Source of the DNA: Cyanophora paradoxa CCMP329
Taxonomy: Eukaryota; Plantae; Glaucophyta
Assembly (NCBI GenBank): GCA_004431415.1
Contig: QPMI01000110.1
Span: forward strand, 1-46,399
Direction: 5' to 3'
DNA: 46,399 nt
Shown here: positions 49-37,477 of the stretch, one piece after another
Layout of the letters: each line of letters begins with the position of its first letter
Position numbering within the stretch: position 1 is the first letter of the stretch
The notes under the pieces: model-generated
What the model was told of the DNA's origin: nothing
Database searches by the model: none
The model's input: only the letters and a program-made list of their open reading frames with translations
Made by a program: the position numbers and the translations under genes

Positions 49-868
49 TTACAGCGCGTCTCGTCGAGGGCCTCTACCGTCTTCGTAATGTACAGCGCAG
101 CAGATCCTTAAGGTTGCTCTGCGGCAGCAATTTTACGTCTACGTGCATCTGCCTGGCGGTTTCTCGCTTCCTGTAGCCCGTCTCCTCCGCCCCACTGCAT
201 GCCGAGGGCGTCCTTTCTCCGTATCGGCCGCACCGCCGTCTTCTGGTACTCCTCCCCGAACCAGTCGTCCTTGTAGAAATTCGGCAGGCCGCCCTGTCCC
301 TCCGTTTGCATGAACTTGATGAGGAAATCCGACGCCCGCTTGCCGTCGAATTGCACGCGCGAGTAGTGCACCAGCGTGAGCAGGATGTGCGCGTGGAGCC
401 GCCCCGACCGCGGCCCGTACTCGATGCCGATGTTCGCGTTACCCTTCTCCACGTGCGTGTCGTACTGGTCGGACTTGAAATCGAAGCCCTTGGGGTTCGC
501 CTTGTCGGGTACACCCCCATCTTATGCACCGCGCCAGCTGCCTGTCGTCGTAGAAGGGGCCTCCAGCCCCTGTGAAGGCGTCCTGCACCTTGGAGCCTTC
601 TCCCCTGCTCCGCGGCTTGTAGTTGGTCTGGATGGTGATCATGAAATTCGACTCGCGCTGGGCCGTCCTCTCCGTTCAGTTTCCTCACGGGCGCCGCGTC
701 CAGCACCTCTGGAACCACGTCTTGTCGGGCGCCAGCACCTTGTCGTTGATGTTGCCCACCACGATGTGAGTCTCTACCCGGGAGCGGCCGGAGGCGTCCA
801 TGGGAGGTGAGGGTTCGGTGCCGGGCTTGCCTGTTTGCTGCCACGCCCCTCGCGATGAGGTTGAGCAT
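49..868 (-). CDS. HUH-superfamily (rolling-circle Rep-like) endonuclease, frameshifted
   Basis: Joining minus-strand frames gives motif I-like SNFMITIQTN (~620-650), motif II EYGPRSGRLHAHILL (ORF 108..452) and motif III-like ALYITK (~81-98), in the canonical order. Exact ends uncertain. Confidence 0.75.
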
Positions 869-1096: not shown

Positions 1097-1922
1097 ATGG
1101 CAGACTCTGGCGAAATCGATCTCCTCCTCCGAAACTTTGAGCAGATCCAGCGCTACGGAGCCATCCTTCACGACGAGGGGGACCCAGACTTCGACGCTCC
1201 GGCACCGTACCCCGCCGCCGCCGCCGCCATCGCCAACTCCTACCTCGGGGCCGGAGAGCGCCCCCGCAAGCGCAACCGCCGCACCCAAGGCCCCCAAGGC
1301 GAAGCCGCTGTCCCCTGCGGAAATTGCGGCTCTACCGCCCTCGTTGGTGTTCACCTGGATGGGGATCTGGTTTGCCAAAGCTGCGGTCTGGTCCTGGATC
1401 TTTATTATCCGGACCATCAACCCCTGGCTGTCAGCGAGCTCCACAGCAACTACCTGCGGAAGTACCACGTATCTGAGCGACTTAAGCAGCACTGCCTGGA
1501 GGATTCTCCGGTACCCGAGGACGTGCTGGCAGCTATTGCGAGGCGCATGGCGGGGAAGGAGTGGAGCAAAGACAATATCCGCCAAGTTCTCCGGGCTCTG
1601 AAGCAGCAGAAGTACATCGAGCGCTGGCGCAGATCAAGTGGCGCATCACGGGCGAGCGCCCGCCTCCGATGAGCGCGGAGGACATGGACCGGGTGCAGGA
1701 GATGTTCGCCTGGTGAGGTCCCCTTCAGCATGTTCAAGTCACAGGGCAGGAAGAACATGCTCAACTACAATTACGTATTCAGGCAGATTTTCGTGCTGCT
1801 AGATTTGCCCAGCACCTCCCCTTTTTCCCCTTGCTCAAGAGCAGGCAGAACTCTCGGAGTTAGATTCGATTTGGAACAGGATCTGCGAGTACAACGACTG
1901 GCATTTCTTTCCTACTCTTTAG
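1097..1922 (+). CDS. VLTF3-like viral late transcription factor with Zn ribbon, frameshifted
   Basis: Zn ribbon CGNC...VCQSCG, then YLRKYHVSERLKQ, LKQQKYIERW, GRKNMLNYNYVFRQIFVLL and FPLLKS..LDSIWNRICEYNDWHFFPTL*, which are typical VLTF3 C-terminal motifs. Confidence 0.88.
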
Positions 1923-2660: not shown

Positions 2661-3728
2661 TCAGGCGAGGCCGCGGTGCTTCCTGAAATTATCTATCATG
2701 CCCAGGAGCGTCTTGTCCACCGTGCCGTCGTCCGGACCCACGAGATTTTCTCCGTTGACGGTTTCGCCCTCCCAGTACTCCTTGGATCCGATGCGGAAGG
2801 GGGGCGGCTCCTCGGCCTTGTAGACGTACAGAACGTCCAGAGGGTTCGTAGAGTTGTTGGAAGAATCGATGATAAGGCAGTGGTTATCCTGCGTGTACTT
2901 GTCGAGCAGGTAGTAGAAGGCGCGCTGGGATATGATGTCGCCCCACTCCTTTGCGAGGGCCTCGCGCTGCATCGCCTGCGAGCACTTGAAAATGACAGCC
3001 AGATCAGTATTGGAGCGCAGGACGGGATTGATGCCCTTGGCATACTGCGTCGTGATAAGGGTCATGATTTTGTAGTGGCGCCCCGCCACGAAGAGCTCGT
3101 TGAGGGCCTCGTCGTACCGCAGCCGAGCGTCGGAAATCACGTCGTCGAGCAGCACGAAAAATCGCGGGTCGACGGGATCCTCCTTTCCCGCGAGCACGTC
3201 TTCGGACTTGTTGTGCTGCATGATCGCCTGCTGCCTCCTGAATAAATGGAAGAGCACGCCCGGGTTGTACTTGGGCCAGATGAAGCGCTGGGGTATGTAC
3301 TGCTTCCAGTACCCGTTCAGGCGATCGGTCTGGCTGATCACGATACCCCCCGGGAAGGTGCCGGAGAGGTTGAACATGAGATCGCGGAGGAAGAAGGACT
3401 TGCCCGTGCGCCGCTTGCCGACGCAGACGACGGTGGCGTCGGACTTGACGGTGTTCACGTCGAACCACTTGAGCTCGGGCAGGCAGGCCATGCGCTCGAT
3501 GCCGCCCGTCTTCGAGTTGTCGAGGAAGGCGTTGACCTGCTCGGGCGTGAGCTGCTGGCCGTCCTCTGTCATGCCCATGGCGCAGCTGGCGCCGGCGGCG
3601 GGGGCGGTGCCCGAGCCCGATCCGGTGGCCTGGCCGGCGGGGGCGGGGGCCGGGGCCGCGCCGGCGGGCTGGGCGGCCTGGGGCTTGGCCGCCTTCGGCT
3701 TCTTCGGCTTCTTGGGGTCCTTGGCCAT
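2661..3728 (-). CDS. A32-like (FtsK/HerA superfamily) genome-packaging ATPase
   Basis: Walker A GKRRTGKS, Walker B FVLLDD, GRHYKI arginine motif, TTQY sensor. Likely start MAKDPKKPK at 3728. Confidence 0.93.
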   Translation of the reverse strand: MAKDPKKPKKPKAAKPQAAQPAGAAPAPAPAGQATGSGSGTAPAAGASCAMGMTEDGQQLTPEQVNAFLDNSKTGGIERMACLPELKWFDVNTVKSDATVVCVGKRRTGKSFFLRDLMFNLSGTFPGGIVISQTDRLNGYWKQYIPQRFIWPKYNPGVLFHLFRRQQAIMQHNKSEDVLAGKEDPVDPRFFVLLDDVISDARLRYDEALNELFVAGRHYKIMTLITTQYAKGINPVLRSNTDLAVIFKCSQAMQREALAKEWGDIISQRAFYYLLDKYTQDNHCLIIDSSNNSTNPLDVLYVYKAEEPPPFRIGSKEYWEGETVNGENLVGPDDGTVDKTLLGMIDNFRKHRGLA

Positions 3729-3765
3729 TTTACCCCCTTCATTCAGATTTTCTTGCGACCCTGGA

Positions 3766-4242
3766 ATGAAGATCCTCGGCGTGGATGTGGGGGTCATTAA
3801 TTTCGCCTGGTGCCTCATCGAATTCGATCCGCAGACAAAGGAATCCCAGATTCTCGACTGGCAGAAGATCGCCCTCTTCCCGTCTGCGCGCTGCTGTGGC
3901 CGCCTTGTGGCGCGCCTGGTGGAGGTTACTCGCGGCCATAGCGCCTTCGGCCTTCCCGACCAGATCGCGATCGAGGGCCAGAGGACGGGAATCAATCGCT
4001 GCATCGAGTGCACGCTCCACGCCCTCCTGTACGGGCGTGCGCGGATCGTGAGCCCGCGCGCCATCAAGCACTTCTTCAAGATCTCGAACCCGAGCTACAA
4101 GGAGCGCAAGCGGGGCGCGGTCGACAAGTGCCGCGACCTCGTACCCGCCGAGCTCGCCGACATCGCGGACCGAAACGGCAAGCTCGACGACCTCTGCGAC
4201 GCCTACCTGATCGCCCTCTACGCCGCCCTCAATCCGGTGTGA
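3766..4242 (+). CDS. RuvC-like Holliday junction resolvase (poxvirus A22-like)
   Basis: MKILGVDVGVINFAW, IAIEGQ, YKERKRGAV and KLDDLCDAYLIA give the catalytic D-E-D-D pattern. Confidence 0.9.
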   Translation: MKILGVDVGVINFAWCLIEFDPQTKESQILDWQKIALFPSARCCGRLVARLVEVTRGHSAFGLPDQIAIEGQRTGINRCIECTLHALLYGRARIVSPRAIKHFFKISNPSYKERKRGAVDKCRDLVPAELADIADRNGKLDDLCDAYLIALYAALNPV

Positions 4243-7876: not shown

Positions 7877-7891
7877 ACGCACCCCTAAACC

Positions 7892-9260
7892 ATGGCTTCC
7901 GCGCTCATCTCCACCCCCTCGACCGCCCTGCACCACTCGCTGCGCAGCTCCGACGCGTCGGTGCACGTGCACGAGACCTTCGACACGGCGATGCCGTTCG
8001 TGGACGAGGTGCTCGAGGTGAGCCCCGTGCAGTCGGGCGTGAGCTTCAGCCAGACCGTCGACATCGTCATCCCGCACTCGGCGCCGATGTTCAACGACTC
8101 CTGGCTCAAGGTGACGCTGCCGGCGCTGACGAACGCGGACCACTTCTACATCCCGAAGGCCGGCTACGTGCTGCTCAAGAAGGTGAAGATCTTCGTGGGC
8201 GCGCAGCTGATCCACGAGTACGACGGCCATTACGACGCCATCTACGGCGAGTTCGAGGACGACAAGTCCGTCGTCCAGCACGTCGACATGGTGAACAACC
8301 TCTGGGCGCACCAGCCGCTGCGCCGCCGGGGCAAGGCCCCGAACACGCTGTACATACCGATTCGCATCGCGACGGGCCACGGTCGAAAGTTCGCCGTGCC
8401 GCTCCACAAGCTCCGCTGCTCCGGAAACGACATGAAGCTGCAGATCACGTACGCCTCGCAGAAGGAGGTGACGGCCTCCTTCGTGGACGGCGGCCTGCAC
8501 ACCAACACCAACCTGACGAGCACCGTCAGCCTGGACACCAAGCTCATCCTGCGCTACGTGCACATCGACTCGCGCGAGCTGGCGCTGCACCCGAACTCGT
8601 TCACGTGGGCCGGCAAGTACGTGCAGCACTACCACGTCTCGTTCGAGTCCGGCAAGGCCATCCGCCTGCCCTTCACCGGAATCTGCTACGAGCTGATCAT
8701 CGTGGTGCGCGACAAGCCGCACACCGACAACGGCGAGCACTTCTGGCGCTTCCGCCCGCTCGACAAGATCGAGCTGAAGTGCGACAACATCAAGGTGCTC
8801 GATAGCTCGAACCACGACGCGCACTTCTTGCGCACGGCCATCGCGCACAAGGAGCACACGCACGCCCCGCCCGCAAGCACCTCGAGCTGCTGCGGGCGTG
8901 ACCTCGATGGACGGGACGGCGGCGGCCGACGTGGCCGACGCGCTGCACCCGCACCCGTGGTCGGGCAACGACACGGCCCCCACGACCCTCGCGACCCACG
9001 ACGGGCACAGCAGCGACATCCAGCCCCGCAACGTGGGCCAGTTCGGGACGGAGTTCATCTACTCGCTCCCCTTCGGCACGGACGTGGCCGACAACACCAA
9101 GATGTTCGGCGGCCTCGACATGGGCGCCTTCAAGACCATCGAGCTCACGCTCACCACGCTCAAGACCTACGGCGCGGACAAGCCCGTGGCCGACATCTAC
9201 TGCCGCTACTACAACGAGATCACCTTCACCAACGGCGGCGCCTACCGCCGCTTCCATTAG
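7892..9260 (+). CDS. Major capsid protein (double jelly-roll, NCLDV-like), one frameshift near 8880-8900
   Basis: Beta-rich ~455 aa. Contains WLKVTLPAL, GYVLLKKVKIFVGAQLIHEYDG, LYIPI, LPFTGICYELIIVVR, FIYSLPFG, GGLDMG and YYNEITFTNGG, matching the NCLDV MCP layout. Confidence 0.88.
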
Positions 9261-10816: not shown

Positions 10817-10858
10817 AAAATATTTCTAAGGGCAGGCGTAAAGGATGGACCCTCGGCG

Positions 10859-11645
10859 ATGCTTGGCTTCGAGGCGCTGGCCGTGGACGGGCCGAACCCC
10901 GTGGGAATCCCGCAGCCCCGGAAGAAGGGCCGCCCCGCGAAGGAGGGCAAGGAAAAGGGCGAGAAGGCGCCGAAGGCCGACAAGACGGCGCTGCCGGGCG
11001 ACGGGCCCACGGTGCCGCCGACGGCGCCGAGCAAGGGGCGAGCTTCAGCGTGCAGGAGCACATCGAAATGACGAAGAAGAAGGAGCAGAGCGTGAAGAAG
11101 GCGCTGGGGATCGACCTGCAGGAGAGGCCGCGCGACGAGGCGCAGGTGGACGTGGACGAGAAGAAGCAGGTTCTGCGGCAGATCGCGCAGTACAGGCGCT
11201 CGTTCGGGGCGAGCTTACGTCCACGAAGAAGCTGAGCCTGGCGACGCCGCTGGACGAGCTGAAGGAAGAGTACGAGGAGATTCAGCGCGAGCTGAGCACG
11301 CGGGGTTCGCTGGAGGCGGCGCGCCTCTTTCTGATCGCGGGCATGCACTCGCTGGAGCACCTGAACAAGGCGTACGATCCGATCGGCCTGAAGCTCGACG
11401 GGCTCGGGCAGGCGACGCTCTCTTCGATGGACCAGGTGCAGCCGATCTTAGAGGAGCTGGTGATTAAGTACTCGCGCTACGTGACCCTGGGGCCCGAGGC
11501 GCGCCTGGGGATGGCCCTGGTGCAGACGGTGCTGGCGGTGCACGCGGCGAACGCGAACCCGGAGGTGATGAAGGAGGTGACGGAGGCGGCGGCCTCGACG
11601 GCGGCGGAGCCCAAGGCGGTGGGCGGCAAGTTCAACGGCCTTTGA
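10859..11645 (+). CDS. Conserved NCLDV-type protein (DUF5767-like), two frameshifts
   Basis: YDPIGLKLDGL...LEELVIKY...GPEARL....VHAAN motif string. Confidence 0.7.
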
Positions 11646-13555: not shown

Positions 13556-13680
13556 AGGAGGGGGGGGGGAGAAGTGACGCGGACGCGAAAGATTCCGTCA
13601 TGGGTTTTTCCGTCATGGGCTGGAACTTGGACCTGGGACTCGGGCCCAAACTCTCCCGGTAAAAAAATAGATTCGAACTT
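13556..13680 (+). repeat. Repeat copy A (TTCCGTCATGGG x2 + GGACTCG heptamers), outer left arm
   Basis: Direct repeat of ~14460-14526 and reverse complement of ~17657-17773. Confidence 0.9.
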
Positions 13681-13711
13681 GGCGCCATTTTCTGATGCTA
13701 GTCTACCCACC

Positions 13712-14377
13712 ATGGAGCCCGCCATCTCCCAGCTGGTCTCCCAGGGCGCCAAGCTCGACAAGGCCCTCAACATCTACCTTCAGCTGATCGAGCTGGCATG
13801 GCCCGAGCCAATGATTGCCCAGGCCTGCAAATCGCTCCACGTGGCGTTCGATGCGCCGTTCTCAGGTGACCCGGATCAGATGACATCCTGGTCCAAGGAG
13901 GAGATAAAGGCAGACTTTGAGGCGCTTTTCTCATTTATGAGCAAGAAGTATGCCGAAATCGAAGCAGCCAAGGATGCCGAAGCCCAAGGCGGTGAAGATG
14001 CAGAAGCCCCAGAAGCCCCAGCCCAAGGCCCTGCCGGCGACCAAGGCACCGAAGTTCAAGGCGCTGGGCCCCTGCAGAGGGCGAAGGCCAAGGCGGACCT
14101 GCGACCGCGTAGGCCCAAGGACATAGCCAAGGAGGCAAGCGGCCACAGGCCGGACTGGCCGGCGCCGGCGCCCTACCGCTACCTCAAGCTGGACAAGAGC
14201 AACGATACCGGCTTCACCAGGAGGAGGTGGCCTGAGCCTCTCAGGTGGCTGGAGCCAAGGGAGATCAAGGCCGGAGGCAGTATCGAGCTAGCGCTAGCGC
14301 TGGGAGGCGGTGGTGGTGCAGACTTGGAGGAGCAGGCCTTGCTAGATACCATCAACTTGGGCAAGGTAGAGCTGTGA
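13712..14377 (+). CDS. Hypothetical protein lying between repeat copies A and B
   Basis: MEPAISQLV... ORF preceded by CCATTTTCTGA. Confidence 0.55.
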   Translation: MEPAISQLVSQGAKLDKALNIYLQLIELAWPEPMIAQACKSLHVAFDAPFSGDPDQMTSWSKEEIKADFEALFSFMSKKYAEIEAAKDAEAQGGEDAEAPEAPAQGPAGDQGTEVQGAGPLQRAKAKADLRPRRPKDIAKEASGHRPDWPAPAPYRYLKLDKSNDTGFTRRRWPEPLRWLEPREIKAGGSIELALALGGGGGADLEEQALLDTINLGKVEL

Positions 14378-14526
14378 TATCTAGCTAGTGCTTGCTAGCG
14401 CTTGCTTAATTAATTAACCTGAAGTTACCTGACATTTACCTGAAAGGTTGCGGAGGTTGCGGACGCGTCACAATTCCGTCATGGGTTTTCCGTCATGGGC
14501 TGGAACTTGGACTCGGGACTCGGCCG
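14376..14526 (+). repeat. Repeat copy B, inner left arm
   Basis: Reverse complement of 17431-17560 (GATATC...TTAATTAA...CCGTCATGGG...CGGCCG). Confidence 0.9.
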
Positions 14527-14754
14527 CAAAACTCGGCGTAAAAAAATACACGTGTTTTTGTCAAGTCTAACGTACCGACTCTGTACCCCTCTATTCGACT
14601 TGAAGGTAATTTCAAGTTGCTATGACATCATACTGAAGTTGCTATGACATTATCGTTATTCACAATCAATGAATACTTTAATGTAGTATAGAACGGTCAT
14701 AGGAGGGGTACGTCGTTCTTGTTCAAGTCTCGAACTTACCAGGAGAATTCCCGG

Positions 14755-15097
14755 TGCGCTGAGCGGGATGCGCTAAGCAGTTGGCTAGGCCCAGAGGCGC
14801 CCCAAGCAGAGAGGGACAGGCCCGTACGGCACCGTAGGGCGGCGGCAAGCGGGTGCCATTACGTACACAGCAGGCGCAGAGCCAGCGTAAGACAGAGAGA
14901 ACAAGAGAACAAGGACGTCGACAGACAGCAAGCGAGCGCCGCGCAGGGCAAGCGAGGGCCCAGGGCTAAAATAAGCGGGCCAGTTGGCAACAACGTGGCA
15001 CCAGGAATAGCAGGCTACAAAGGGTACAAGGCAAGGCAAGCTGCCGGCTTAGAGCCGACGACCAGGGCTAGCTGGGAGTCGGAAAGTGGGCGGCACA
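14755..15097 (-). repeat. LTR (3' LTR in inferred orientation)
   Basis: 343 bp, two visible substitutions relative to 17087-17429. Confidence 0.92.
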
Positions 15098-17086
15098 CGC
15101 TTCCCGCTACAAAAAGCCGTCCTCGGCGCTACGAGCTAAAGGCTGAACTAAAGCTGCGTAGGCGAGGCTGAACGGACTACGAGCCAAAAGCCGGCTACCG
15201 TCCCTGCACAGAAAGCCGTCCTCGGCGCCACAGCGGGCGGGCCAGAGGGGCAAATTAAAATCCATCAGGCCGTCGGCACCAGTATGAGGAACTGGGCCCA
15301 ACAAGGGAAGTTGGGTGAGGGACCCACGACCTGACGCCAGAGCGCGCGGAGCGCCGCCAGCCAACCGGGGGCAAACCCTCTAAATCCCGCCGGAGGGGAA
15401 AACGAGTGCTAGCGCTAGCACTAAGCTCGAATTCGAAACCGGCGCCGCGCCGCAAGCCGCCGGGCTGCGGCGGCGCCGGGTCGAAAGTTCCACAGTGTAG
15501 AAGGTACTTGACGTAGAATGTAGGAGTGTAGGACCGCAGGCTCGATCAGCAGAGCCGCAGCGGCAGAGTACGCGTTGCGGGCCAAGCTCGGCGCAGCTTG
15601 CCGCATTGCGTTGCCAAGTGACTCGGCCAGCGGAGTCACGAGGCGGGGCGATCGGACAGCACAGTAGCGTGTGCAGCCGCGTAAGCGTAGAGCAGGCAAG
15701 CCATGAAGAGTAGAGGCGGCGGGCCAGTCGCACGGGGTCAGGCTCCACAGCAGCGGCAGGCCACTGGTTGCATCATACAGACCCATCGCCAAGGATCCTC
15801 CACGATCGGACGGGATGGCAAACCACGGATACAGCCATCGAGTCCGCCGGTGTACGCAGATGCAGTGCGTAGCCGGGGCTTAGGCAGGCCACCATCGCGG
15901 GACAGGAGACAGCATCAGCGCGGCCCGGAATGATCATCGGTGCTCGCGTGATAGTCGTAGGCAAGAAGACTGGTCGCGGGGCATCACCCAGTGCTGCTTG
16001 CTGACGCTCCTCAACAGACAGGTCCGCTGTCCGCCGTCCAACTTTAGCTATGGCTGCTCACGTCGTCGTAGGACGTCCCAGAGCGCATCCTGTACGCTTC
16101 TGTTGACCTTCGCCCGCCGGACAGGCCTCGGTCAGACCTCCGCCCGCTGAACAGGCCTCGGTCGCTGATCAAACGCCCACGACAGGAAAGAACGACAGTC
16201 CGCACACGCTGGAGATGTGCGTGAAGCGACTGACATCTGGCTTGACGAGCTGGACGTCCCGGAGAAGGGCAGCTACGTCGTCGGAGCCAGGGCAAGGTCT
16301 TGGCATCTTGTCTGCCTTCTCGGTGCGACAGCGCGCACGGTAGAATTGACAACAGATAGATGCGCTTCCTCGCATAGAGATCGCTGTCAAGTGGAGCTGC
16401 GCCGGCTTCCACTGACGCGTACGCAACCCGCAGAGCCGAGAGAGACGCGGAGCCGCACGTCCTCTGGATGCAGGGTGGAGTCAAGTGGAGTGATCCTCAC
16501 GAGGGATGCCACTCGCCGCCGCTGAGCGTGCCTCGGACGGTCCGCAGGCGCCACTGCAGCCGTCGTAGGTGAGACCTCGGGCGCGTACTGGGGCCTTGTT
16601 ATCCCAGGGGCTTTCACGTCGCAGCGGTTTGACTCCATGCGTTCTTCAGATACACTCGCCACCATTGCAATACATTTAGTAGTACGCTGTGGTGTCGTCT
16701 CTCGATACAATACAATACAGTTTCATTCGACATGCGCGCGGGCTGCATCAGCATCTGTTCTTGAGCGCAGCCACGGCACGTTTAGATGACTGTGAGCGCA
16801 TGCGGCTCAATAGACGGGTTGGCGGACGCTTCCCACTACCGAAAGAGTGGTGCGCCGGGGCCGTAAGCAAGAAAAGGCGCGCGCAGTGGCGGGTAGAAAG
16901 GCATGAACCATGCGGTTCGTATTGCTAAGCTCTGCCGCATAGGCGCTTCCCACTACAAGAGAGTGGAGGCCGTACGCGCAAGCCGAGGCAAACGATGGCG
17001 TGCTTGTCCAGGGGTTCGGGCAAGAGCGCAGCGTTCGTCCCCAGGCATACGAGCTAAAAAGTCGAAGCCCAACGCAGCAGCCCCCA

Positions 17087-17429
17087 TGCGCTGGGCGGGA
17101 TGCGCTAAGCAGTTGGCTAGGCCCAGAGGCGCCCCAAGCAGAGAGGGACAGGCCCGTACGGCACCGTAGGGCGGCGGCAAGCGGGTGCCATTACGTACAC
17201 GGCAGGCGCAGAGCCAGCGTAAGACAGAGAGAACAAGAGAACAAGGACGTCGACAGACAGCAAGCGAGCGCCGCGCAGGGCAAGCGAGGGCCCAGGGCTA
17301 AAATAAGCGGGCCAGTTGGCAACAACGTGGCACCAGGAATAGCAGGCTACAAAGGGTACAAGGCAAGGCAAGCTGCCGGCTTAGAGCCGACGACCAGGGC
17401 TAGCTGGGAGTCGGAAAGTGGGCGGCACA
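17087..17429 (-). repeat. LTR (5' LTR in inferred orientation)
   Basis: Followed on the minus strand by TGGGGGCTGCTG, which is PBS-like. Confidence 0.92.
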
Positions 17430-17430
17430 C

Positions 17431-17560
17431 CGGCCGAGTCCCGAGTCCAAGTTCCAGCCCATGACGGAAAACCCATGACGGAATTGTGACGCGTCCGCAA
17501 CCTCCGCAACCTTTCAGGTAATTAATTAAGCAAGCGCTAGCGCTAGCTAGCTAGATATCG
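17431..17560 (-). repeat. Repeat copy C, inner right arm (its other part, 14721-14754, is separated by the LTR element)
   Basis: Inverted copy of B. 14721-14754 plus 17434 onward reconstitutes the sequence seen intact at 17657-17740. Confidence 0.9.
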
Positions 17561-17656
17561 ATACCACCTACTTAGTACTACTTAGTACTACTAGGACACT
17601 AGGACACTAGGACTCTGGGACACTAGGGCATTTGGACATAGGGGGTACCCCGCCGA

Positions 17657-17773
17657 GTTCAAGTCTCGAACTTACCAGGAGAATTCCCGGCCGAGTCCCG
17701 AGTCCAAGTTCCAGCCCATGACGGAAAACCCATGACGGAATCTTTTGCGTCCGCGTCATTTCTCCCCCCTCCT
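17657..17773 (-). repeat. Repeat copy D, outer right arm
   Basis: Inverted copy of A, including GCGTCCGCGTCA.TTCTCCCCCC. Confidence 0.9.
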
Positions 17774-22753: not shown

Positions 22754-22803
22754 TGTCCCGACCCTCCCAGATCTTTAAATTAATATCTCAGAAGGTCGAG
22801 ACA
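22754..22803 (+). repeat. 50-bp palindrome with AT-rich centre (duplicate copy)
   Basis: TGTCCCGACCCTCCCAGAT-CTTTAAATTAAT-ATCTCAGAAGGTCGAGACA. Confidence 0.9.
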
Positions 22804-22893: not shown

Positions 22894-24052
22894 ATGGCAA
22901 CCGGACGCGTGTCTCTCGACGTCGACGCCTTCCTGGCCCGTATGCCCGGGCCCGGGTACAGCAGATAGATCTGAGCGAGCAGGAGTGCAGCTTTTTCGTT
23001 CGATTCCCTCTCGTCGAAGTCCAGAAGGCCTGCAGCCCGACCCTGGGACGGCTTTCTGCGTCTTCCACCCGCCCTGCATCACCCCAGCCACTTCTCGGGT
23101 GCCGAGGATGAGACGAGCACTGCGGCAGCCTGCGCCTTTGCAACCAAGTTCGGAGGCTTCACTTTCTCTCGCCCCTTGGATAATGGATTCAAGGCTGCCT
23201 ACGTCCTACAGAGCCCGGAGGCTTGCGATCTCATGGCATGGTTCTTTGGGAGCTCGAGCGGCCTGGAGCTCGGTGTGGATGGCACCGGGGGCTACGTTCT
23301 GCGGGGGCCGGCGCCCGGGCCGCGAGCGGAGCTCCTCCCCACTCCATCCAGAAGCTCGGCGCCCCGCGCTAAGCCCATCCCGGAGCCGGGCGCTCTCCTG
23401 GATTCGAGCCCAAGCCTGCCGGCCTTGGAGCGGCTCCTGGACCGCCTACGCAAGAACAAGGCGGTGAGGGACGAGATCTGGAAGGCGGGGGCAGAGCTGC
23501 GCGCGGACCTTGGCCTGCACGACGCCCGCCGCGTTCAGCACCTTGGAGTCGAGCCCGACGGGTCCATCACCCTCGTCCTGGGCGGGAGTCAGCCGGGGGC
23601 GCCGGCGGCTCGAATCTCCATCCAGGCGCACGGTATTGAAGTCGAGCTCGAGGGGGAGGGGACCGGAGGGGAGTCGGGCAGCGTGGCACAGACCCGCTAT
23701 GTGACCGATCCCTCGCAGCCTGTCGCCTTCGACATTGCCCTCCCCTCCCTCCTGATCGCGCTCGAGTCGACGGGCCTGGAGGCTTGCGTCAATGCAGTGG
23801 ATGAACGCCACCTCTCGTGCAAGATCCTTACCTCCGCATTCGGGGCGCTGGAGCAGAACCCGAGATCCGCTCAGCCGCAGGTCGACGTCATCTGCTCGGG
23901 ACTCAACACGGGGAAGACGCAGGCGCTGATCGATGCGTACCTGGACCCGGCCCTTGCAGGCGGCTGGCGAGTGATCCTCGTGACTTGCCGCCGGGCCTTC
24001 TCCCGCGACCTCAAGCGTCGCATTGATGCTGCGGAGTTGTCAAAGGACGCCG
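22894..24052 (+). pseudogene. 5'-only duplicate of the helicase gene, truncated after motif Ia
   Basis: Same as 25373 onward up to ELSKDA, then runs into duplicated upstream sequence. Confidence 0.8.
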
Positions 24053-25232
24053 GCTCGAAGGACTGGATGCAGGAGGCCTGGCGGCCACCTGCGGCGCGGG
24101 CGACGTTAGCGCGTACGACGTCGGGACGGGCGGGGAAGGTGCGCGGCTTCGAATCCAGCGGCTCCCCGCGAAGCTGCCTGCGGCCCAGTGAGCGTGCTGC
24201 GAGCGGGAGGTGGGAGGGATTGGGCGGGCGGGCCTGCGTCCAGCGCTGAAACGTAGCTCCACTGATGCTATCCGCGATGCGCGTAGCCCGCGACTGGCTG
24301 CGGACAAGGGAGGGCTTAGCTAGGACAAGAACGGGTGTGGGGCGCGGGGCTGGAGGCGCGGGGAGGCGAGCCGGAGCCGCCGAATCGATGCGCGGGCTTG
24401 AGAACGAGATCTAGAAGCGTGCGCAAGTCGCCGCGAACGTCGGCTCGAGTTGCGGAAGGCGCGGCGGCCAATCTCGGCACCTGCTCAGAGACCAAATGTC
24501 AGCGGACGCGGGCGAATCGAGCGCGAGGTTGCGGGACATGTTCTAGGTGCTAAATGCAAGGGATAGAGCGGCAAGAGAGCGAGCTGGCACCTGCGGGATG
24601 CGGCGGAGTGCTCCGGCTCGGGCGCCATCGAGCTTTCGAAGGTCCGCGGCCGGCGCGAGCGACCCTGCGCGTGGCGGCGTGAGTGCGGCGTCGAGAGAGC
24701 TTTCCAGCGCCCAAAATCTGAGGTCCGGAGCTAGCCGTGGTGCGGAGAAAGAGGTTGCGAAGTGAGGCGCACCTCCGAATCGAAAGGAGCGAGGCGGCGG
24801 CTCTCCGGGCTGAGCGGAATGCAAGCTAGTGCCTCTGGCAAGTGCTGCAAGGAGCGCTGGGCCCGGGCGCTGCGAGATGCGCTGCCCGGGCGCTTTTTTT
24901 CGGGTTGGGGTACTGTGTTTTGAGTCGAAACACGTGGAGCAACCGCGTGAGCCCAAACTTTCTGAGCTTAGGAGCAAAGGCGGTCGAGCGCTCGGCCGCG
25001 CAAGCTAGCTCCGGCGCGCTCTGCCTTCTCTCTACACGTGTCGCATTCGCGTGCGCTCAAAACTTTCTAAGCTTCGGTCAAGCAAGGGGCTAGCGCTTCC
25101 GAAGTTCTACGCGCGCGCCTCCCCGTCCGCCGGGCCGACGGTCTGCGCGTCACATCGTCCGCTGCGCCAAGAAGGAGAGATCAAGACGGTGTCAACCGGG
25201 TCTAGTTGAGCGCTTAAGGTCGGACCAAAGCC

Positions 25233-25282
25233 TGTCCCGACCCTCCCAGATCTTTAAATTAATATCTCAGAAGGTCGAGACA
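25233..25282 (+). repeat. 50-bp palindrome upstream of the helicase gene
   Basis: Same element, 90 bp before the ATG. Confidence 0.9.
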
Positions 25283-25372
25283 GCAGTCCAGACGTCGACT
25301 ATAGCTAGCCAACAGACGTCGACTAGCCTAGTAGATCTAGAATTTTCCAAGCCTAGCTATAGAGAGACGACC

Positions 25373-28300
25373 ATGGCAACCGGACGCGTGTCTCTCGACG
25401 TCGACGCCTTCCTGGCCCGTATGCCCGGGCCCGGGGTACAGCAGATAGATCTGAGCGAGCAGGAGTGCAGCTTTTTCGTTCGATTCCCTCTCGTCGAAGT
25501 CCAGAAGGCCTGCAGCCCGACCCTGGGGACGGCTTTCTGCGTCTTCCACCCGCCCTGCATCACCCCAGCCACTTCTCGGGTGCCGAGGATGAGACGAGCA
25601 CTGCGGCAGCCTGCGCCTTTGCAACCAAGTTCGGAGGCTTCACTTTCTCTCGCCCCTTGGATAATGGATTCAAGGCTGCCTACGTCCTACAGAGCCCGGA
25701 GGCTTGCGATCTCATGGCATGGTTCTTTGGGAGCTCGAGCGGCCTGGAGCTCGGTGTGGATGGCACCGGGGCTACGTTCTGCGGGGGCCGGCGCCCGGGC
25801 CGCGAGCGGAGCTCCTCCCCACTCCATCCAGAAGCTCGGCGCCCCGCGCTAAGCCCATCCCGGAGCCGGGCGCTCTCCTGGATTCGAGCCCAAGCCTGCC
25901 GGCCTTGGAGCGGCTCCTGGACCGCCTACGCAAGAACAAGGCGGTGAGGGACGAGATCTGGAAGGCGGGGGCAGAGCTGCGCGCGGACCTTGGCCTGCAC
26001 GACGCCCGCCGCGTTCAGCACCTTGGAGTCGAGCCCGACGGGTCCATCACCCTCGTCCTGGGCGGGAGTCAGCCGGGGCGCCGGCGGCTCGAATCTCCAT
26101 CCAGGCGCACGGTATTGAAGTCGAGCTCGAGGGGAGGGACCGGAGGGGAGTCGGGCAGCGTGGCACAGACCCGCTATGTGACCGATCCCTCGCAGCCTGT
26201 CGCCTTCGACATTGCCCTCCCCTCCCTCCTGATCGCGCTCGAGTCGACGGGCCTGGAGGCTTGCGTCAATGCAGTGGATGAACGCCACCTCTCGTGCAAG
26301 ATCCTTACCTCCGCATTCGGGCGCTGGAGCAGAACCCGAGATCCGCTCAGCCGCAGGTCGACGTCATCTGCTCGGGACTCAACACGGGGAAGACGCAGGC
26401 GCTGATCGATGCGTACCTGGACCCGGCCCTTGCAGGCGGCTGGCGAGTGATCCTCGTGACTTGCCGCCGGCCTTCTCCCGCGACCTCAAGCGTCGCATTG
26501 ATGCTGCGGAGTTGTCAAAGGACGCCGTGCTTTACATGGACATCAAGAAGCCACCGGAGAGCTCAAAGGGATCGCATGGCAAGTGGGGCTTCCGCCATGA
26601 GGAGTGCAGGTGCGTCGTCATCACATGGGACTCGCTGCACAAGGTGCTCGAGGACTGGGAGGGCTGGTCGACGGCGCCGCTACTGGTCGTGCTGGACGAG
26701 CTCTCCTCCCTCACGAAGCACCTCACCTCGAGCGGCACCCTCGAGCCCACCGGCCTGCACCTAGGTATGCGGTCAGTGCCTCGAAACGCGCGCTGCGTGG
26801 GCCTATGGCGCGGCGTGATGAAGGCATCGCGCATCGTGGCGATGGACGGCTTCGTTCGGTCGGTCGATCTCGCGTACCTGGCAGAGTCGGCGCAGGAGGT
26901 CGGGGCGCGCCTGGGGCTCCTGTACAACTCGCATCGCACCTGCGACTGGAAGATGCGCGTGTCAGACAGCCCGGCGCACGTCGAGGCGGACATCATGGCG
27001 CTGTGCAGACCGGGGCGCTGCCGGGCGATGATCATTGCAGAGACGCCGGCCAAGGCGATCGAGATGCAGGAGAAGATTGCGAAGCAGGCGCTGGAGCAGC
27101 TCAGCCTGGGCGGCGCTCAGTACGTGACTCAGCTCGAGGCAGGGCCCGAGGACGGCAGCGGCGCACCGTTCACGATCGGGCTCATCGTTGGGCAGGCCAA
27201 GGAGAAGAGCGTGCGCTTCACGAACGACGGCCCAGTGCGCATCGTGTCGATCGATGTGTCTGAGGAGGGCGCGTACAAGGCCTGCGACGTGCTCATCGCA
27301 ACTTCCGCGCTCGGGGCAGGCGTGGACTTTTCGGACGCGCACTTTGACAAGGTCTACGGCGTGTTCCAGGCAGAGCCCGCGCAGCTGGAGGCGGACGACA
27401 TCGTGCAGCTGCTGTTTCGAGTCAGAAGGCTGCGCAAACGCAGCACGCCCGACGGAGAGCACCTGCTCGTCGCCGTGCGCAAGAACCGGACGCCCTCGGT
27501 TGCGGTCGGCGCGGCGGCTGCGCACTGGCGTGAGAGCGACGACGACGAGAGCTCGGACGACATGCAGCGCTACCTGGACCTGAAGGCTAGCCACCGCGGG
27601 AGCCGCCGCGCCGGCATGCCCACTCGGCGCCTCGCAGTGGCAGCGCGCCTGCGGCTGATGTCGACCTGCGCGCTGATGAACGTGCAAGTCACGGAGGATC
27701 AAAACCGAGCGGACCGAAGCAGGAGAAGGAGCAGCGGCTGCGCGAGATCAGGAGCGTGCTGGAGGCGGGCGCGCTGGAGCCCGTCGATCTGTGGAGCACG
27801 GTGCTGGCCTGGAGGCAGTCCCGCGAGTCTCTCGCTAAGCTGGACATCGAGAAGGTTGCTTCGCTTGCTCGCACGTCGATCGCCGCGTTCCTGGCCAAGG
27901 ATCCGAGCGAGCTGACCGAAGGAGACGTCGCCTGGATGTGGGATTCGTTCTACTCCATCCCGCTCACTGCCGTGGTCACGCTGGTGCTGAAGCATGGCGC
28001 GGACGTTGCCGAGATCGTGCCTACTGCTGAGCGCCTCAAGGTATCGAAGGTCGTCGCGCTGTTCAAGAAACTCTTCGGCTGGCGGGGTATGGAAAGCTCG
28101 CGGGGCGTGCTCTGTGGTCGGACGAAGCCTACGCGGCCCTGGCGTCGCCGGAGGGTCGGGAGGCGTACGCGGCTCTGCAGAGTCTGGACGAGCGCGCGCC
28201 CCGCTTCGATGCAGCGGACGGTGAGAAGAAGCGGCTCTCGCAGCAGTCTTGGCAAGTCATCAAGTACCTGCTGGAGAAGTACCTCGGAGTGAGACGCGCT

Positions 28301-28636: not shown

Positions 28637-28920
28637 TTGCGAGGGCGGACGAGAGTGAGGGCATGCACTCTCTATGTGTCCCGACCTTTTCTGAACAACT
28701 CATGATTGCCGTATCATCGATCTGCATTTACTCACTTCGTTCTCTGTCGCTTGCACATGCGCGGTGTGGGATTACTAATTAGATCTAGTCTCCCTAGCCC
28801 TCTGCGGCCGCCTTCCTGCCCCCCTGCAAAGAGCAGCTCAACCAAATCCTGTGGGGTCTGATTCATTGCAGACTCGCCTTCCCCGCCTGGGCCTGAGCTA
28901 CACCAAGCTACGGTGAGTCC

Positions 28921-29268
28921 GACCAAGAGACGTGTCCGGACCCTCCCTACTTTCTTTATAGATTATTGGAAAGGTCCGGACACTAGAGGAGGGAGGGCGT
29001 ACATAAGTAGTCTGACCAAGAGACGTGTCCCGACCCTCCCAGATCTTTAAATTAATATCTGAGAGGGTCGAGACACTAGAGGAGGGCGTACATAAGTAGT
29101 CTGACCAAGAGACGTGTCCCGACCCTCCAGATCTTTAAATTAATATCTGAGAGGGTCGAGACACTAGAGGAGGGCGTACATAAGTAGTCTGACCAAGAGA
29201 CGTGTCCCGACCCTCCCAGATCTTTAAATTAATATCTGAGAGGGTCGGGACACTAGAGGAGGGCGTAC
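28921..29268 (+). repeat. Tandem array of four ~89-bp units, each carrying the 50-bp palindrome
   Basis: Palindromes at 28933-28982 (divergent), 29026-29075, 29115-29163 and 29203-29252, with near-identical spacers. Confidence 0.93.
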
Positions 29269-29887
29269 GACTTAAACTCGCGCAGCGCCGCCTGCTCCTC
29301 GCTGAGGTTCTCTGACTTCATTCGATCGCTGTAGGGCTCGGGCGGAGTTCCAGCCTTCACGTGCATCCAAAATAGATGTAAGCACCGCCGCATGAGCTCG
29401 ATGTACCTCTCGTCCCGTCTGACGTACCACGTTTGCACGCGCAGAGGCGTGAAACAGAAAAGTTCGGCCCAGTCGCGGCCCGTTATGTCCAGCAGGCCCT
29501 GAAGTTGAGTCATGTAATAGGTAGGAACGCTATCGTAAAGTTCGCCCTTGTAAGGGCATTTCACCTCTAAAATCCTATCATTTCCTATCAGTCCGTCGGG
29601 GCTCCCGGCGAGGAACGGCATTTCTTTGTGTTCGTGCAGTCCAGTGTGTTGAATGTCCACGTTATCGTTCAGTGCCTTGTAGATAGAGACCGCGAGGGGC
29701 TCGTAGTCGTGCCCGTAGGTTAGGGCAGGGTTGTCAAAGTTGTTTTCCTCCGCGATCCGCTCAGCTCCGCCCAGAGGCGGGCCCTGGATTTCCACGGGTT
29801 GATGCCGCACGCGGCGGCAAAGTTCGAGGCGGTTAGCTTTTCGCGGCGCGCAGCGTGCCACGCCGCGCTCCCCTGTTGTAGGTCCAT
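29253..29887 (-). CDS. YqaJ/lambda-type PD-(D/E)XK exonuclease (one frameshift)
   Basis: QGSAAWHAARREKLTASNF, YGHDYEPLA, FLAGSPDGL, LEVKCPY and YYMTQLQGLLDI. Confidence 0.93.
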
Positions 29888-29939: not shown

Positions 29940-30625
29940 ATGTCGGATGACGAAGATTCGAGCCCGGTCCCGCAGATGGACGAAGATTCGAGCCCCGAAG
30001 AGTTCCTGACTCGCGTTAGGGGCCTGGCCCATTGGATACGAGATAAGTTCAAGGAGGGGATGCGAAATCGGATAGGAACGTCGTCCTTTCCGCTGAGGGG
30101 GCTAGCCCCTGTTGCAGCCCAGGGGCTGCGGGATACCGTGAGGCTCGCCCCCCATCCTATGATCGGAACTGGGACTTCAGCAGTGTGCTTACGTCCCTGT
30201 ACGTGGCGCTGATGTCGCCTAGAAGCCGCGTGGCCCGTCTGCCGAACGAGGCCAGATTGAAGATCATGAACTTCTTACTCGCAGGTAGAGACGGGCGCGA
30301 AGGCGATGTGATCAATGGGCTTCGAAATGAGATACAGTGGTACATGCGTACAGGCGAAGGCGGTGTCCGACAGTACGACGGCTCACGGTACACAGAGCTC
30401 GAGATTCCACGCGAGCTCGTACCCCGGAGCTGGCAAGAGCTTCCGCCCGCCCCACCCCCGCCCCCCGCCTACGTATCCCCCTTTGACTCGAGGCCCCCCA
30501 TCAACGAGCGCAAGCGACTGCGCGACTGGCTGCAGGACGATCGAAACCGTCTGCCGGTGAGGCAAAGGTCGGCACTATACCCCCAGAGGAGGAGGCGTAC
30601 CCCGTTTTCGAGAACAATCGCCTGA
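29940..30625 (+). CDS. Hypothetical protein, paralogue family member 1 (F-box-like LP motif), frameshifted
   Basis: EEFLTRVRGLAHWIRDKF and SRVARLPNEARLKIMNFL. Confidence 0.6.
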
Positions 30626-30680
30626 CGTGGAGGTGGACGTGATAGGGGGTACGGGTAGATATTCTCAGCGAGCCGCGAGC

Positions 30681-31432
30681 ATGGCGCGGACACGCGAGTC
30701 CGACGTGCTGTACAACAACGGCCCCATCATCGTGAGATCCTACAGCGGACCGTGGACTTGGACGACGCACAATCCGATCTGCACCGGCGGCGATGGGCGA
30801 TGGGCCCCGATTCGGGGAGCGGATCGCCCGGGGAGAACTTTATGGAACGCGTGCTGTACCTCGTGCGCTGGATACGAGATAAGTTTAACGACGATCAAGA
30901 GTTTCCAGATCAAAACACCATCGGCGCAGCACGTTTCATGGGTATGACGATCAATCCACGCAATCATGGCAGGCGAGAACGCAGGGATCTGAACGGCGAT
31001 TGGGCGGACCTACAAGCACTGTGGATGGCCTTTGCGAACCGCAAGAGCCAGATCCTCGCTCTGCCCGCGCGGGTGCAGGAGCGTATCATTGACTTTGTGG
31101 CACCGTGGCGCTTCGAGAGCCTTGACCCGCAGACTGTGCAGCCCCGCTTCCTCAGACGACTGCGAAACGCCTTCTACCACCTGGCGCTGAGCGACGGCCA
31201 GTACTTCACGCCTCAGAGAATCGATCACGGTGAATTCGGTATACCCCCCGAGTGGGCAAACTTTGGCATGGTACCCCCGCCGCGGCCCCTCCTCTACGGC
31301 CCCCCCTCCCCCTCACCTGAGCAGCGTGAGTCACTCAAGCGTCAGAGGGAGGTACGCGAATGGATGGACGACACCAGTCACTGGGTACAGGGCGAGGCCG
31401 AGTTACGCAAGTTCGCTAGGCTCGGGCAGTAA
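30681..31432 (+). CDS. Hypothetical protein, paralogue family member 2, frameshifted
   Basis: ENFMERVLYLVRWIRDKF and SQILALPARVQERIIDFV. Confidence 0.6.
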
Positions 31433-33063: not shown

Positions 33064-33112
33064 ACTTGGGACTTGGGACTTGGGACTTGGGACTTGGGAC
33101 TTGGGACTTGGG
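33064..33112 (+). repeat. (ACTTGGG)7 heptamer array in a divergent promoter region
   Basis: Seven perfect units. Confidence 0.95.
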
Positions 33113-33170
33113 AAGAGTTAAAATCAGAGTCTGGACCCAAAAGCGGGGAAATTTTCGGACGGGGAGAAAA

Positions 33171-35086: not shown

Positions 35087-35577
35087 GACCTTGGTGCTCG
35101 GACCTTGGGGCTTGGTGCTTGGGCTTGGGCTTGGTGCTTTGGAAGCGTTACTCTCAGAGTCTGGGTCCAGACTTTCTCTGGATCTGCGAGTTTGCCGCGC
35201 CAAGTCATTAACCATCGGGCAGACTTAGAAAGGGGTACTGCATTTTGCATACGACGTTTCCGGTGACATTCCAGGTGAGATTTCGAGAGAGGTAGAGTCT
35301 GAAATGTCGACAGAGTTTTCGAGAGCGATTTCAAGCGAGATGTCAAGAGACAGAGGGTACGAGAAGTCGTAAGAGTAAAAAAGACTACGAGTAAAAAAGA
35401 GTATGAGGGGTGGTACGACTAAAAAAGACTACGAGTAAAAAAAGTCCGTAGAAAAACTCACCTGACTTGTCTGACAAATTTCTGATCCTGGAGAAAGTCT
35501 GGGCCGGGACCCTGAGAGAAACGCTTCCAAAGCACCAAGCACCAAGCACCAAGGTCCGAGCACCAAGGTCCAAGGTC
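35087..35577. repeat. ~95-bp inverted repeats (35087-35186 / 35484-35577) around a ~300-bp spacer with direct repeats
   Basis: GACCTTGGTGCTCGGACCTTGG..TTGGAAGCGTT.CTCTCAG and its reverse complement. AAAAAAGACTACGAGTAAAAAA occurs twice in the spacer. Confidence 0.88.
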
Positions 35578-35609
35578 CCCGGTCGAACATTTTCTGAGCC
35601 TAGGGCAAA

Positions 35610-35973
35610 ATGGCCCTGCTCAAGTGCACCGACTCCCGCGACCTGCCCTACAACGTCCTGGTCAACTCGGACGTGCCCGGAGTGCGATGGAGTTTCCCTG
35701 GCGACTGGACAGGGGCAGGGTGACCAAGACCTTCGGGAGGCGCAAGCACTACCTCTCCCAGCTCATCCTCGGAAGCCGCCACGTGGACTGTACGTGGAGC
35801 ACATCAACGGCAACCCGCTGGACTACAGGAGGGAGAACCTGCGCTGGGTATCGATGTCGGAGATCCAGAAGAAGAGGAGGGAGGGTACGAGCCTGCAGCA
35901 GAAGAGCGAGGAGATTGCGGAGATGATGGAGGCAGCGCAGGCGCTGGTGCAGCTCAGCCAGTCTAGACGCTAG
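35610..35973 (+). CDS. HNH endonuclease (frameshifted)
   Basis: YVEHINGNPLDYRRENLRWV, with upstream ACATTTTCTGAG. Confidence 0.75.
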
Positions 35974-37439
35974 TGGTGTGAATCTTAGTGTCGTACTCGC
36001 GACCGATCGTGGCCCAGGATACGTAGTTTGTAGACGTGCCGTTTGCAGGGTTGGTGGTGGCAGTCGTGTAGTCGGCCTCTGCTTCTATCAACTCGGCCAT
36101 GAGGGTAGAACCCACGACCATTCCAGAGGTAGGCATACCCGCAATGTTGTTGTACAATTTGAAAGTGAATTTCGTGAAGAGGAGCCGGGCCAGAGCTGGC
36201 ACGGGGATTCGAGGAATCATAGGAAAACGAGGTACCCGAGACTCCACCCGTGGTGGCATTCGTCATCATTTCCTTTGCGGTCATCTTCCAGAGATTGTAC
36301 ATCTCAAAGGGACGGCCTGCGTGGTCTTGTGAGTGGCATCGATGGCGGTGCCGTCTATGTGGGTCTTGGAGCCGCCGTTAAAGGTGCGAGTGAGGGCGGT
36401 GTTCGCAGTGAACTTGAGCTCGAGCACTCGGATTGCGGGCCGATCCGGCACGGAGGGCTCTATCTTTTTCAGGAGGCCAGAGAGCCAGAGGGCCTCCGCC
36501 TCGTCCGCGCTCACACCCGAGTCGATGTCAAAGTACACGTACACGGAGCAGGAGGCGGGATTCTCGAAATCGTTGGAGGTGACGCGCAGCATGATCGGAT
36601 TCTGGATCTTCACGGTCAGCATGGAGGCGTAGCTGCCGTCCCAGACCACGGAATCCGTCCCGGCGTTGGCCGCTGCGACATCGCCGTAGAAATCGGGGTG
36701 GGCAGCACGGTCTTCACGATGGTGCTCGAGGTGGAAGGCATTTTGCGACCTCGGATGAGAAAGATTATCCGTAGAAGAGGGCGATGTCGTTGCCGATGCC
36801 GAGAGGCGGGCCGCGGGCTGCACGGCGTCGGAGCCGGTGGTGTGCCTGTAGGAAATCGAGCACTCGCGCAGCTCCGCGCAGAGGCTGGCGCCCGTGCTGA
36901 AGTGGGCTGGTCGGCGGCGTAGGGCAGGGGAAGACCTGGAACTTGAAGAAGGTGAAGGGGAAGCGGGGTAGCCCGGAAGCGCGCGGGTTGCCGCCCGTGT
37001 AGAGGGCTCCCAGGGTGGCGGGACTCGGATTGAATTTCGTGAAGAGCACGTCGCCCTTGAGCGTACCCCGCGCAGTAAACGCACCCGTACCCGGCAGCGC
37101 GGTATCGGTGTACTGGTTCACGGTGGGGCCGTACCCCGTCTCCCTGAACTTAACCTCGAGACAGCGCAGGACGTTGGCCGTGGCCGTGGCGGGCGCCACC
37201 CTTTTCACGAGGCCGGATTCGTGGAGCAGCTCAATGACCTCTGCGCTGAGAGTGGACGGGTCGAAGAAGAGCTGGTAGGAGTAGATCTTGGGCGTGGCGT
37301 AGGCGTTCTGAACGGCTTGAATCACGACGGGATTCTGCAGGAAGACGTCGACGTAGCTGCCGGAGGGGATGCGCGCGAAGTTTGAGTTGTTGTTGCCGGC
37401 GTCGAGGGAGTTGAGAGTCTGGTACCAGTTGGAAGTCAT
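35963..37439 (-). CDS. Beta-rich probable structural protein (minor capsid candidate), frameshifted
   Basis: ORFs 36765..37439, 36281..37084 and 35963..36259 form a consecutive T/N/S/V-rich chain. Confidence 0.5.
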
Positions 37440-37477
37440 TTACCCGGGGCAGATATTTTTTCGGATCGTAGAGGAAA

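Follow-up and report, generated by a model that had tools for sequence, protein, structure and literature searches.

Mriyaviruses (Mriyaviricetes, comprising Gamadviridae and Yaraviridae), which are known mostly from metagenomic genomes, some of them with direct terminal repeats, all conserve a HUH endonuclease that is described as a likely rolling-circle initiator, with the Rep protein of SIRV1 as its best structural match (Yutin et al., 2024, PMC11253617). In the same account, a HUH_long gene beside the HUH gene is described for gamadviruses, and an UL9-like SF2 helicase is assigned only to a subset of Yaraviridae. SIRV1 Rep introduces a nick at the end of the genome and primes replication (PMC5062984), while TnpA of the IS200/IS605 elements binds subterminal hairpins (PMC6006769). 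Integration genes are reported to be absent from mriyaviruses, whereas related virus groups encode HUH plus RVE or YR integrases (bioRxiv 10.64898/2026.06.19.733378). A mriyavirus-like element in an algal assembly has been described among the Phaeocystis NCLDV-like dwarf viruses (Phaglo-G), its origin being called unclear by the authors (bioRxiv 10.1101/2022.07.28.501842).

A HUH endonuclease gene of the mriyavirus type is located at positions 38-868 on the minus strand of the window, the whole analysed stretch of 46,399 nucleotides of the glaucophyte Cyanophora paradoxa CCMP329. By homology to the intact gene model P0022, it would encode approximately 280 aa if intact and is interrupted by 10 indel breaks in the assembly. 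The initial annotation had proposed a HUH Rep-like endonuclease at 49-868 with three motifs falling in order across frameshifts; the end at 868 holds, while the gene reaches down to 38, and all three motifs occur in order on the minus strand. Motif I (FMITIQTN, 622-645) lies on a strand that is conserved in the family alignment, motif II (RLHAHILL, 378-401) contains His167 and His169 and motif III (YITK, 81-92) contains Tyr269 and Lys272 (P0012 numbering), with a stop and a change of frame between the latter two motifs. The four residues are invariant in 18/18 family members, and among 92 sequences both histidines are invariant and Tyr269 and Lys272 are conserved in at least 90%. As a HUH-like regular expression occurs only once in the six frames of the whole window and the pieces of the gene match the family profile in the correct order (E 8.5e-27, 1.7e-14 and 7.8e-6), a chance origin of the motif set is excluded. 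Downstream of the gene, a next frame truncated by the window edge would start at 1-17 on the minus strand (MPPKR).

The gene is present in multiple copies. A search with the longest HUH piece retrieved 11 gene models, all with EukProt 'tig' identifiers, and a profile search retrieved 21 proteins, one of them a 285-aa form whose cluster has 12 members, with accessions labelled Cyanophora paradoxa; 29 distinct HUH gene models are listed on 29 differently named contigs of C. paradoxa. The full-length copies (n=11, 276-285 aa) are mutually 92.9-99.6% identical and all carry HxH and LYITK, while motif I is exact in 10 of the 11 and conservatively changed in one. The catalytic tyrosine, the absence of which from the frame would have spoken against the enzyme, is thus in frame in every full-length copy, and the gap counts of short-read contigs restore the frame in the window as well. 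The protein is stand-alone with a single conserved tyrosine; longer fused HUH forms did not appear in a search among longer proteins, a weak form of evidence. HUH chemistry is shared with AAV Rep, Helitron RepHel and IS91. Of these, AAV Rep and RepHel are fused to helicases, and the enzymes of IS91 and Helitron are of the Y2 type, whereas the HUH family of the window shows neither a fused helicase nor two catalytic tyrosines.

Judged from the sequences, the breaks in the HUH gene are likely long-read or assembly errors. In a frameshift-aware alignment with P0022 (280 aa), 261 of 270 residues are identical, with 10 breaks and a net of 12 bases missing from the window. Logan contigs of four short-read runs from four studies were compared, with 12 of 25 indel rows listed; among these, an extra base is present in all four runs at 506, 521, 556, 566 and 707. 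Contig X17 over 32-729 shows 12 gaps with a net of +10 and contig X15 over 97-895 shows 12 gaps with a net of +12, in both cases exactly the deficit of the window against P0022 in the respective interval, which is what argues for assembly errors. A true pseudogene, with the breaks as decay, is highly improbable, since almost all breaks are missing bases, many of them adjoining short base runs, with only 9 amino-acid differences in 270, and since the same pattern is found in other genes and in an internal 2.48-kb duplicate, where 12 gap positions against only 2 substitutions constitute a signature of long-read indel error; the other broken copies skip at different places. What can be said for decay is that an LTR-like element has inserted into this copy and part of it is duplicated in tandem, and that the short-read contigs merge all copies, so that intactness is demonstrated for the family and not for a single locus.

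Its motifs and its homology to a family already published identify the protein as the HUH endonuclease that the initial annotation had suspected, and the gene is the known mriyavirus HUH gene of Yutin et al. (2024), the discovery of which is in itself no surprise. Like the mriyavirus proteins, it is a stand-alone HUH enzyme with motifs I-III. Identity to the HUH genes of mriyavirus-like IMG/VR contigs amounts to 21-30%, and three environmental homologues, P0016, P0017 and P0018, possibly free-living relatives, are 71, 58 and 42% identical to the algal protein. In distinction to the described mriyaviruses, these three and the algal copies form a clade of their own (support 0.95) with a shared 40-aa insertion before motif III. 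A profile of an intact copy and the three environmental homologues finds matches in 11 IMG/VR contigs of 15-44 kb, in most of which a HUH gene of 240-300 aa adjoins a gene of 1,600-2,100 aa with a homologous C-terminal domain, which is the HUH plus HUH_long layout of Yutin et al. (2024), with L009 among the loci that possess HUH_long. A library-wide search retrieved 431 representatives at E ≤1e-3, and in the HUH tree, for which 153 of 166 domains were used, placement outside the local clade is poorly supported (0.68, 0.64 and 0.32). Scans of viral contigs with a single piece or with the copies of one genome, as well as a metagenome scan, gave no match, and an atlas comparison yielded only scores of 0.77, no more than a lead.

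The family was not recognisable from fold searches alone. A model from a deeper alignment (mean pLDDT 77) has a strand-helix core, with motif II on strand E166-176 (pLDDT >90) and motif III on helix 262-271. With this model, Foldseek lists ISDra2 TnpA (2xm3, 2xma) and SIRV1 ORF119 (2x3g) at probabilities of 0.75-0.89 and E 0.016-0.031 among unrelated folds. The first model found no HUH entry among PDB folds and, elsewhere, one strong unnamed viral match and weak Rep matches; a wide fold search returned generic ferredoxin-like folds (best Z 6.8) with HUH absent from the top 50. Pfam gave no useful family for the HUH pieces and 18 family members, the best being Rep_1 in a single member (E 0.18), two profiles searched against PDB sequences gave no match, and a homodimer prediction, run without an alignment and on an uncertain fold, speaks with its score of 0.00 neither for nor against a dimer. 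SIRV1 Rep, the top Foldseek match by probability (0.89), is likewise a small helicase-less HUH protein of a double-stranded DNA virus, but its E value is only 0.031, its virus is an archaeal linear one with hairpin ends, and the account in PMC5062984 speaks of no integration role. TnpA, a weak fold match, shares the Y1 HUH core, the lack of a helicase and hairpin recognition (PMC6006769), but has approximately 150 aa and moves short elements via their subterminal hairpins, in contrast to a protein of 280 aa in a virus of at least 41 kb whose ends are not seen.

The neighbourhood of the gene is viral. A frameshifted VLTF3 late transcription factor gene (1097-1922, plus strand; PF04947 E 0.0085, with a zinc ribbon) is 35% identical to viral loci (E 1e-13), and an A32-like packaging ATPase gene (2661-3735, minus strand; PF04665) is 50% identical to its counterpart in locus L005 (E 1e-71). 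On the plus strand follow an A22/RuvC-like Holliday junction resolvase gene (3772-4242; PF04848 E 6.7e-7, above the cut-off), the gene of an NCLDV-type major capsid protein (7889-9060, limits approximate; PF16903 E 1.2e-7), a gene of a DUF5767 protein common to mriyavirus loci (10842-11645, by Pfam and viral-locus matches) and an UL9-like SF2 helicase gene (22930-28290; PF02399 E 1.7e-4), the 5' part of which lies within a tandem duplication. A YqaJ-like (PD-(D/E)XK) nuclease gene is found at 29270-29887 on the minus strand (PF09588 E 1.6e-14 and 1.4e-8) and an HNH endonuclease gene at 35452-35973 on the plus strand (PF13392 E 1.5e-7); a protein with fn3 and beta-sheet domains encoded at 37357-38763 is possibly a virion surface or fibre component. 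AAAATTTT-like motifs at gene boundaries (886, 2271, 7865, 9307 and 31-38) are possible late promoters or terminators.

With capsid, A32 ATPase, VLTF3, RuvC, HUH, PD-(D/E)XK nuclease and SF2 helicase, the mriyavirus core set is present, the company of genes is that of the described mriyaviruses, several genes of the window match mriyavirus-like loci, and no match to a DNA polymerase was found among 453 stop-free fragments of an element whose two ends lie outside the window. The signals for the family diverge. The helicase found is UL9-like SF2 and not the SF3_hel2 of Gamadviridae, and thus points to the subset of Yaraviridae, whereas a second HUH-like domain that follows the HUH gene on two other contigs, in P0019 (residues 248-294) and P0021 (residues 96-147), points to gamadviruses, a pairing that sets the algal elements apart from the described families. 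This domain was detected in a four-sequence search (domain E 6e-5 and 1e-4) without a visible Tyr motif; the window does not contain it, and P0019 and P0021 do not match the N-terminal region of HUH_long. On the gamadvirus-like contig L007, a 208-base AT-rich near-perfect palindrome at 16127-16334 resembles a hairpin end or concatemer junction. A further difference is that the algal elements are present in multiple copies in the gene set of a glaucophyte; Cyanophora does not occur in the supplement text of PMC11253617. From the Phaeocystis elements, for which one or two scaffolds are given (bioRxiv 10.1101/2022.07.28.501842), they differ by their 29 contigs and 11 distinct full-length HUH copies.

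Several repeats mark the element. Nested inverted repeats at 13561-17772 (13561-13662/17672-17772 and 14376-14526/17431-17559) surround an AT-rich centre and are a candidate origin or unit junction. In 13561-14548 and 17431-17772, four iteron-like units (TTCCGTCATGGG doublet) lie around this centre, two in direct and two in inverted orientation, an origin-like layout alongside the UL9-like helicase. An array at 28916-29253 consists of four units of approximately 88 bp, each with an imperfect palindrome of approximately 50 bp and an AT-rich loop, and may provide origin or nick hairpins. Seven such palindromes exist in all, the other three being single copies at 22754, 25233 and 28587 (inverted); in four copies that were folded, the z-scores are -3.3 to -4.7 and none of 200 shuffles folds as well, and the loop has 6 exact matches against 0 expected. 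None of 13 partial viral loci showed a hairpin array of this kind. Near the HNH gene, inverted repeats with short CTTGGTG units are located at 35087-35178/35491-35570, with a related stretch at 33072-33134. The tandem duplication of the helicase 5' region (21570-24052/24047-26527; 2.48 kb) could have arisen in the assembly or be confined to this copy, since contig depth is split between its halves and not doubled. Stretches 29944-30645 and 30722-30971 are skipped by short-read contigs in some copies, that is, there is structural variation among copies. A circularly permuted window was considered but finds no support, as its two ends do not match each other.

In line with the initial annotation, which spoke of endogenisation, the viral element is likely endogenous. 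A non-coding LTR-retroelement-like insertion at 14755-17429 (minus strand), with 343-bp repeats of 99.4% identity, TG...CA ends and a 4-bp CCGG target duplication, sits inside this copy, which indicates residence in the nucleus and likely in a chromosome; the 29 gene models on 29 contigs and their 92.9-99.6% identity agree with it. The insertion, within which Pfam found no match, shows a primer-site-like TGG start together with a minus-strand purine tract and interrupts the centre of the viral inverted repeat. Numerous differences between it and the short-read contigs suggest a family of such insertions. Unique viral sequence in the window amounts to approximately 41 kb, with both ends of the element outside, close to the 35-45 kb of mriyaviruses. 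No host gene was recognised in the 46 kb and no host-virus junction was found, either in the window or among the short-read rows listed, beyond which 41 joints and 784 loose ends exist. It is very unlikely that the copies lie outside the chromosomes, in a virus population that persists in the culture as episomes or concatemers and for which no integration enzyme would be needed. The lack of host sequence and of a listed junction would fit such a population, as would a contig word depth in the thousands, a value uncalibrated to a single-copy gene that gives no copy number, but the diverged copies across 29 contigs and the retroelement insertion with its target duplication oppose it. Opposed to it are also the methylated giant-virus-like gene clusters reported from C. 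paradoxa without a family name (Sarre et al., 2025, PMC12344493), with the restriction that they could not be tied to the mriyavirus family of the window.

Pfam families of tyrosine recombinases, rve, DDE and serine recombinases have no match in 453 stop-free fragments of at least 60 aa (92 searched at E 0.1 and 361 at E 0.01), a search of low sensitivity on genes shattered by roughly one indel per 65 bases that nevertheless bears out the earlier observation that the window lacks integrases and tyrosine recombinases. The further claim that HUH is the only candidate integration enzyme fails, because the element extends beyond the window, whose left edge cuts it 37 bp past the end of the HUH gene and whose right edge also falls within genes, because other copies possess a second HUH-like domain, and because the YqaJ, RuvC and HNH nucleases are present. 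As related HUH-bearing groups have RVE or YR integrases in addition, HUH would not normally be the integrase. We consider it probable that the mriyavirus HUH is a rolling-circle initiator and that viral entry is a by-product of replication with no dedicated integrase. The replication role of the mriyavirus HUH is itself a prediction, and several observations weigh against a by-product: the nearly identical and seemingly intact copies, approximately 30 in number, speak for insertion that was recent or happened repeatedly, and an active mechanism would account for this more readily than rare accidents, the reported absence of integration genes from mriyaviruses (bioRxiv 10.64898/2026.06.19.733378) leaves a real gap, and the HUH structures among the Foldseek rows listed include a Y1 transposase, as a weak model-based match (E 0.016-0.03).

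These same observations would favour a HUH enzyme, or the second HUH domain, which replicates and also integrates by strand transfer in the manner of IS200/IS605 TnpA, Helitron RepHel or AAV Rep, with the palindromes as recognition hairpins, a mechanism that we regard as unlikely. Many intact copies with no integrase in the 453 fragments, mriyaviruses described without integration genes, the listing of TnpA and SIRV1 ORF119 by Foldseek (0.75-0.89), the stable repeated hairpins of the window next to the subterminal hairpins bound by TnpA (PMC6006769) and the second HUH-like domain of two copies are consistent with it. The fold matches, however, have E values of 0.016-0.03, are mixed with unrelated folds and are missing for the first model and from the top 50 of the wide search, the hairpins as seen are internal to the element, and most HUH-bearing mriyaviruses are metagenomic, while HUH-bearing sister groups possess separate integrases (bioRxiv 10.64898/2026.06.19.733378). 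It is equally doubtful that a 40-kb capsid-encoding mriyavirus lineage has spread to approximately 30 glaucophyte sites by a single-strand transposition in which HUH, or the second HUH domain, recognises the 50-bp hairpins; if true, a relative of giant viruses would integrate like IS200/IS605, which would explain endogenous mriyaviruses without integrases. A dedicated integrase might have escaped notice outside the window, broken by indels, or acting in trans from Polinton-like viruses (PLVs) or retroelements, which we consider quite improbable. The element continues past position 1, the right end of the window likewise falls within genes, this copy has already received an LTR-like element, and 366 PLV-type capsid genes of C. 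paradoxa are among those listed in the supplement of Bellas et al. (2023, PMC10120064), which makes integrases in trans plausible, as PLVs usually possess YR or rve. Against an overlooked enzyme stand the approximately 41 kb of unique viral sequence, near the size of a mriyavirus genome, without an integrase and the lack of integrases in published mriyaviruses (bioRxiv 10.64898/2026.06.19.733378). Literature on integrase-free integration was not found.

If entry is a by-product of rolling-circle replication, as we favour, HUH chemistry and the account of Yutin et al. (2024) would suggest that His167 and His169 bind the metal and that Tyr269 attacks single-stranded DNA at an origin hairpin, upon which the freed 3'-OH would serve as primer for a host polymerase, the UL9-like helicase would unwind and the RuvC-like enzyme would resolve the concatemers. 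As a guess, the origin might lie in the 50-bp palindromes or in the central inverted repeat, and integration might, as a further guess, proceed via the capture of nicked or branched intermediates by host repair or recombination.

A published report of mriyaviruses in Cyanophora was not found, though supplements or Fig. 3 of Sarre et al. (2025) may already show such elements. The elements described here likely extend the host range of mriyaviruses, which have been proposed as the closest living relatives of the ancestors of giant viruses, to glaucophytes, and a culturable glaucophyte with approximately 30 near-identical, apparently intact copies makes the replication of mriyaviruses and their entry into genomes testable.
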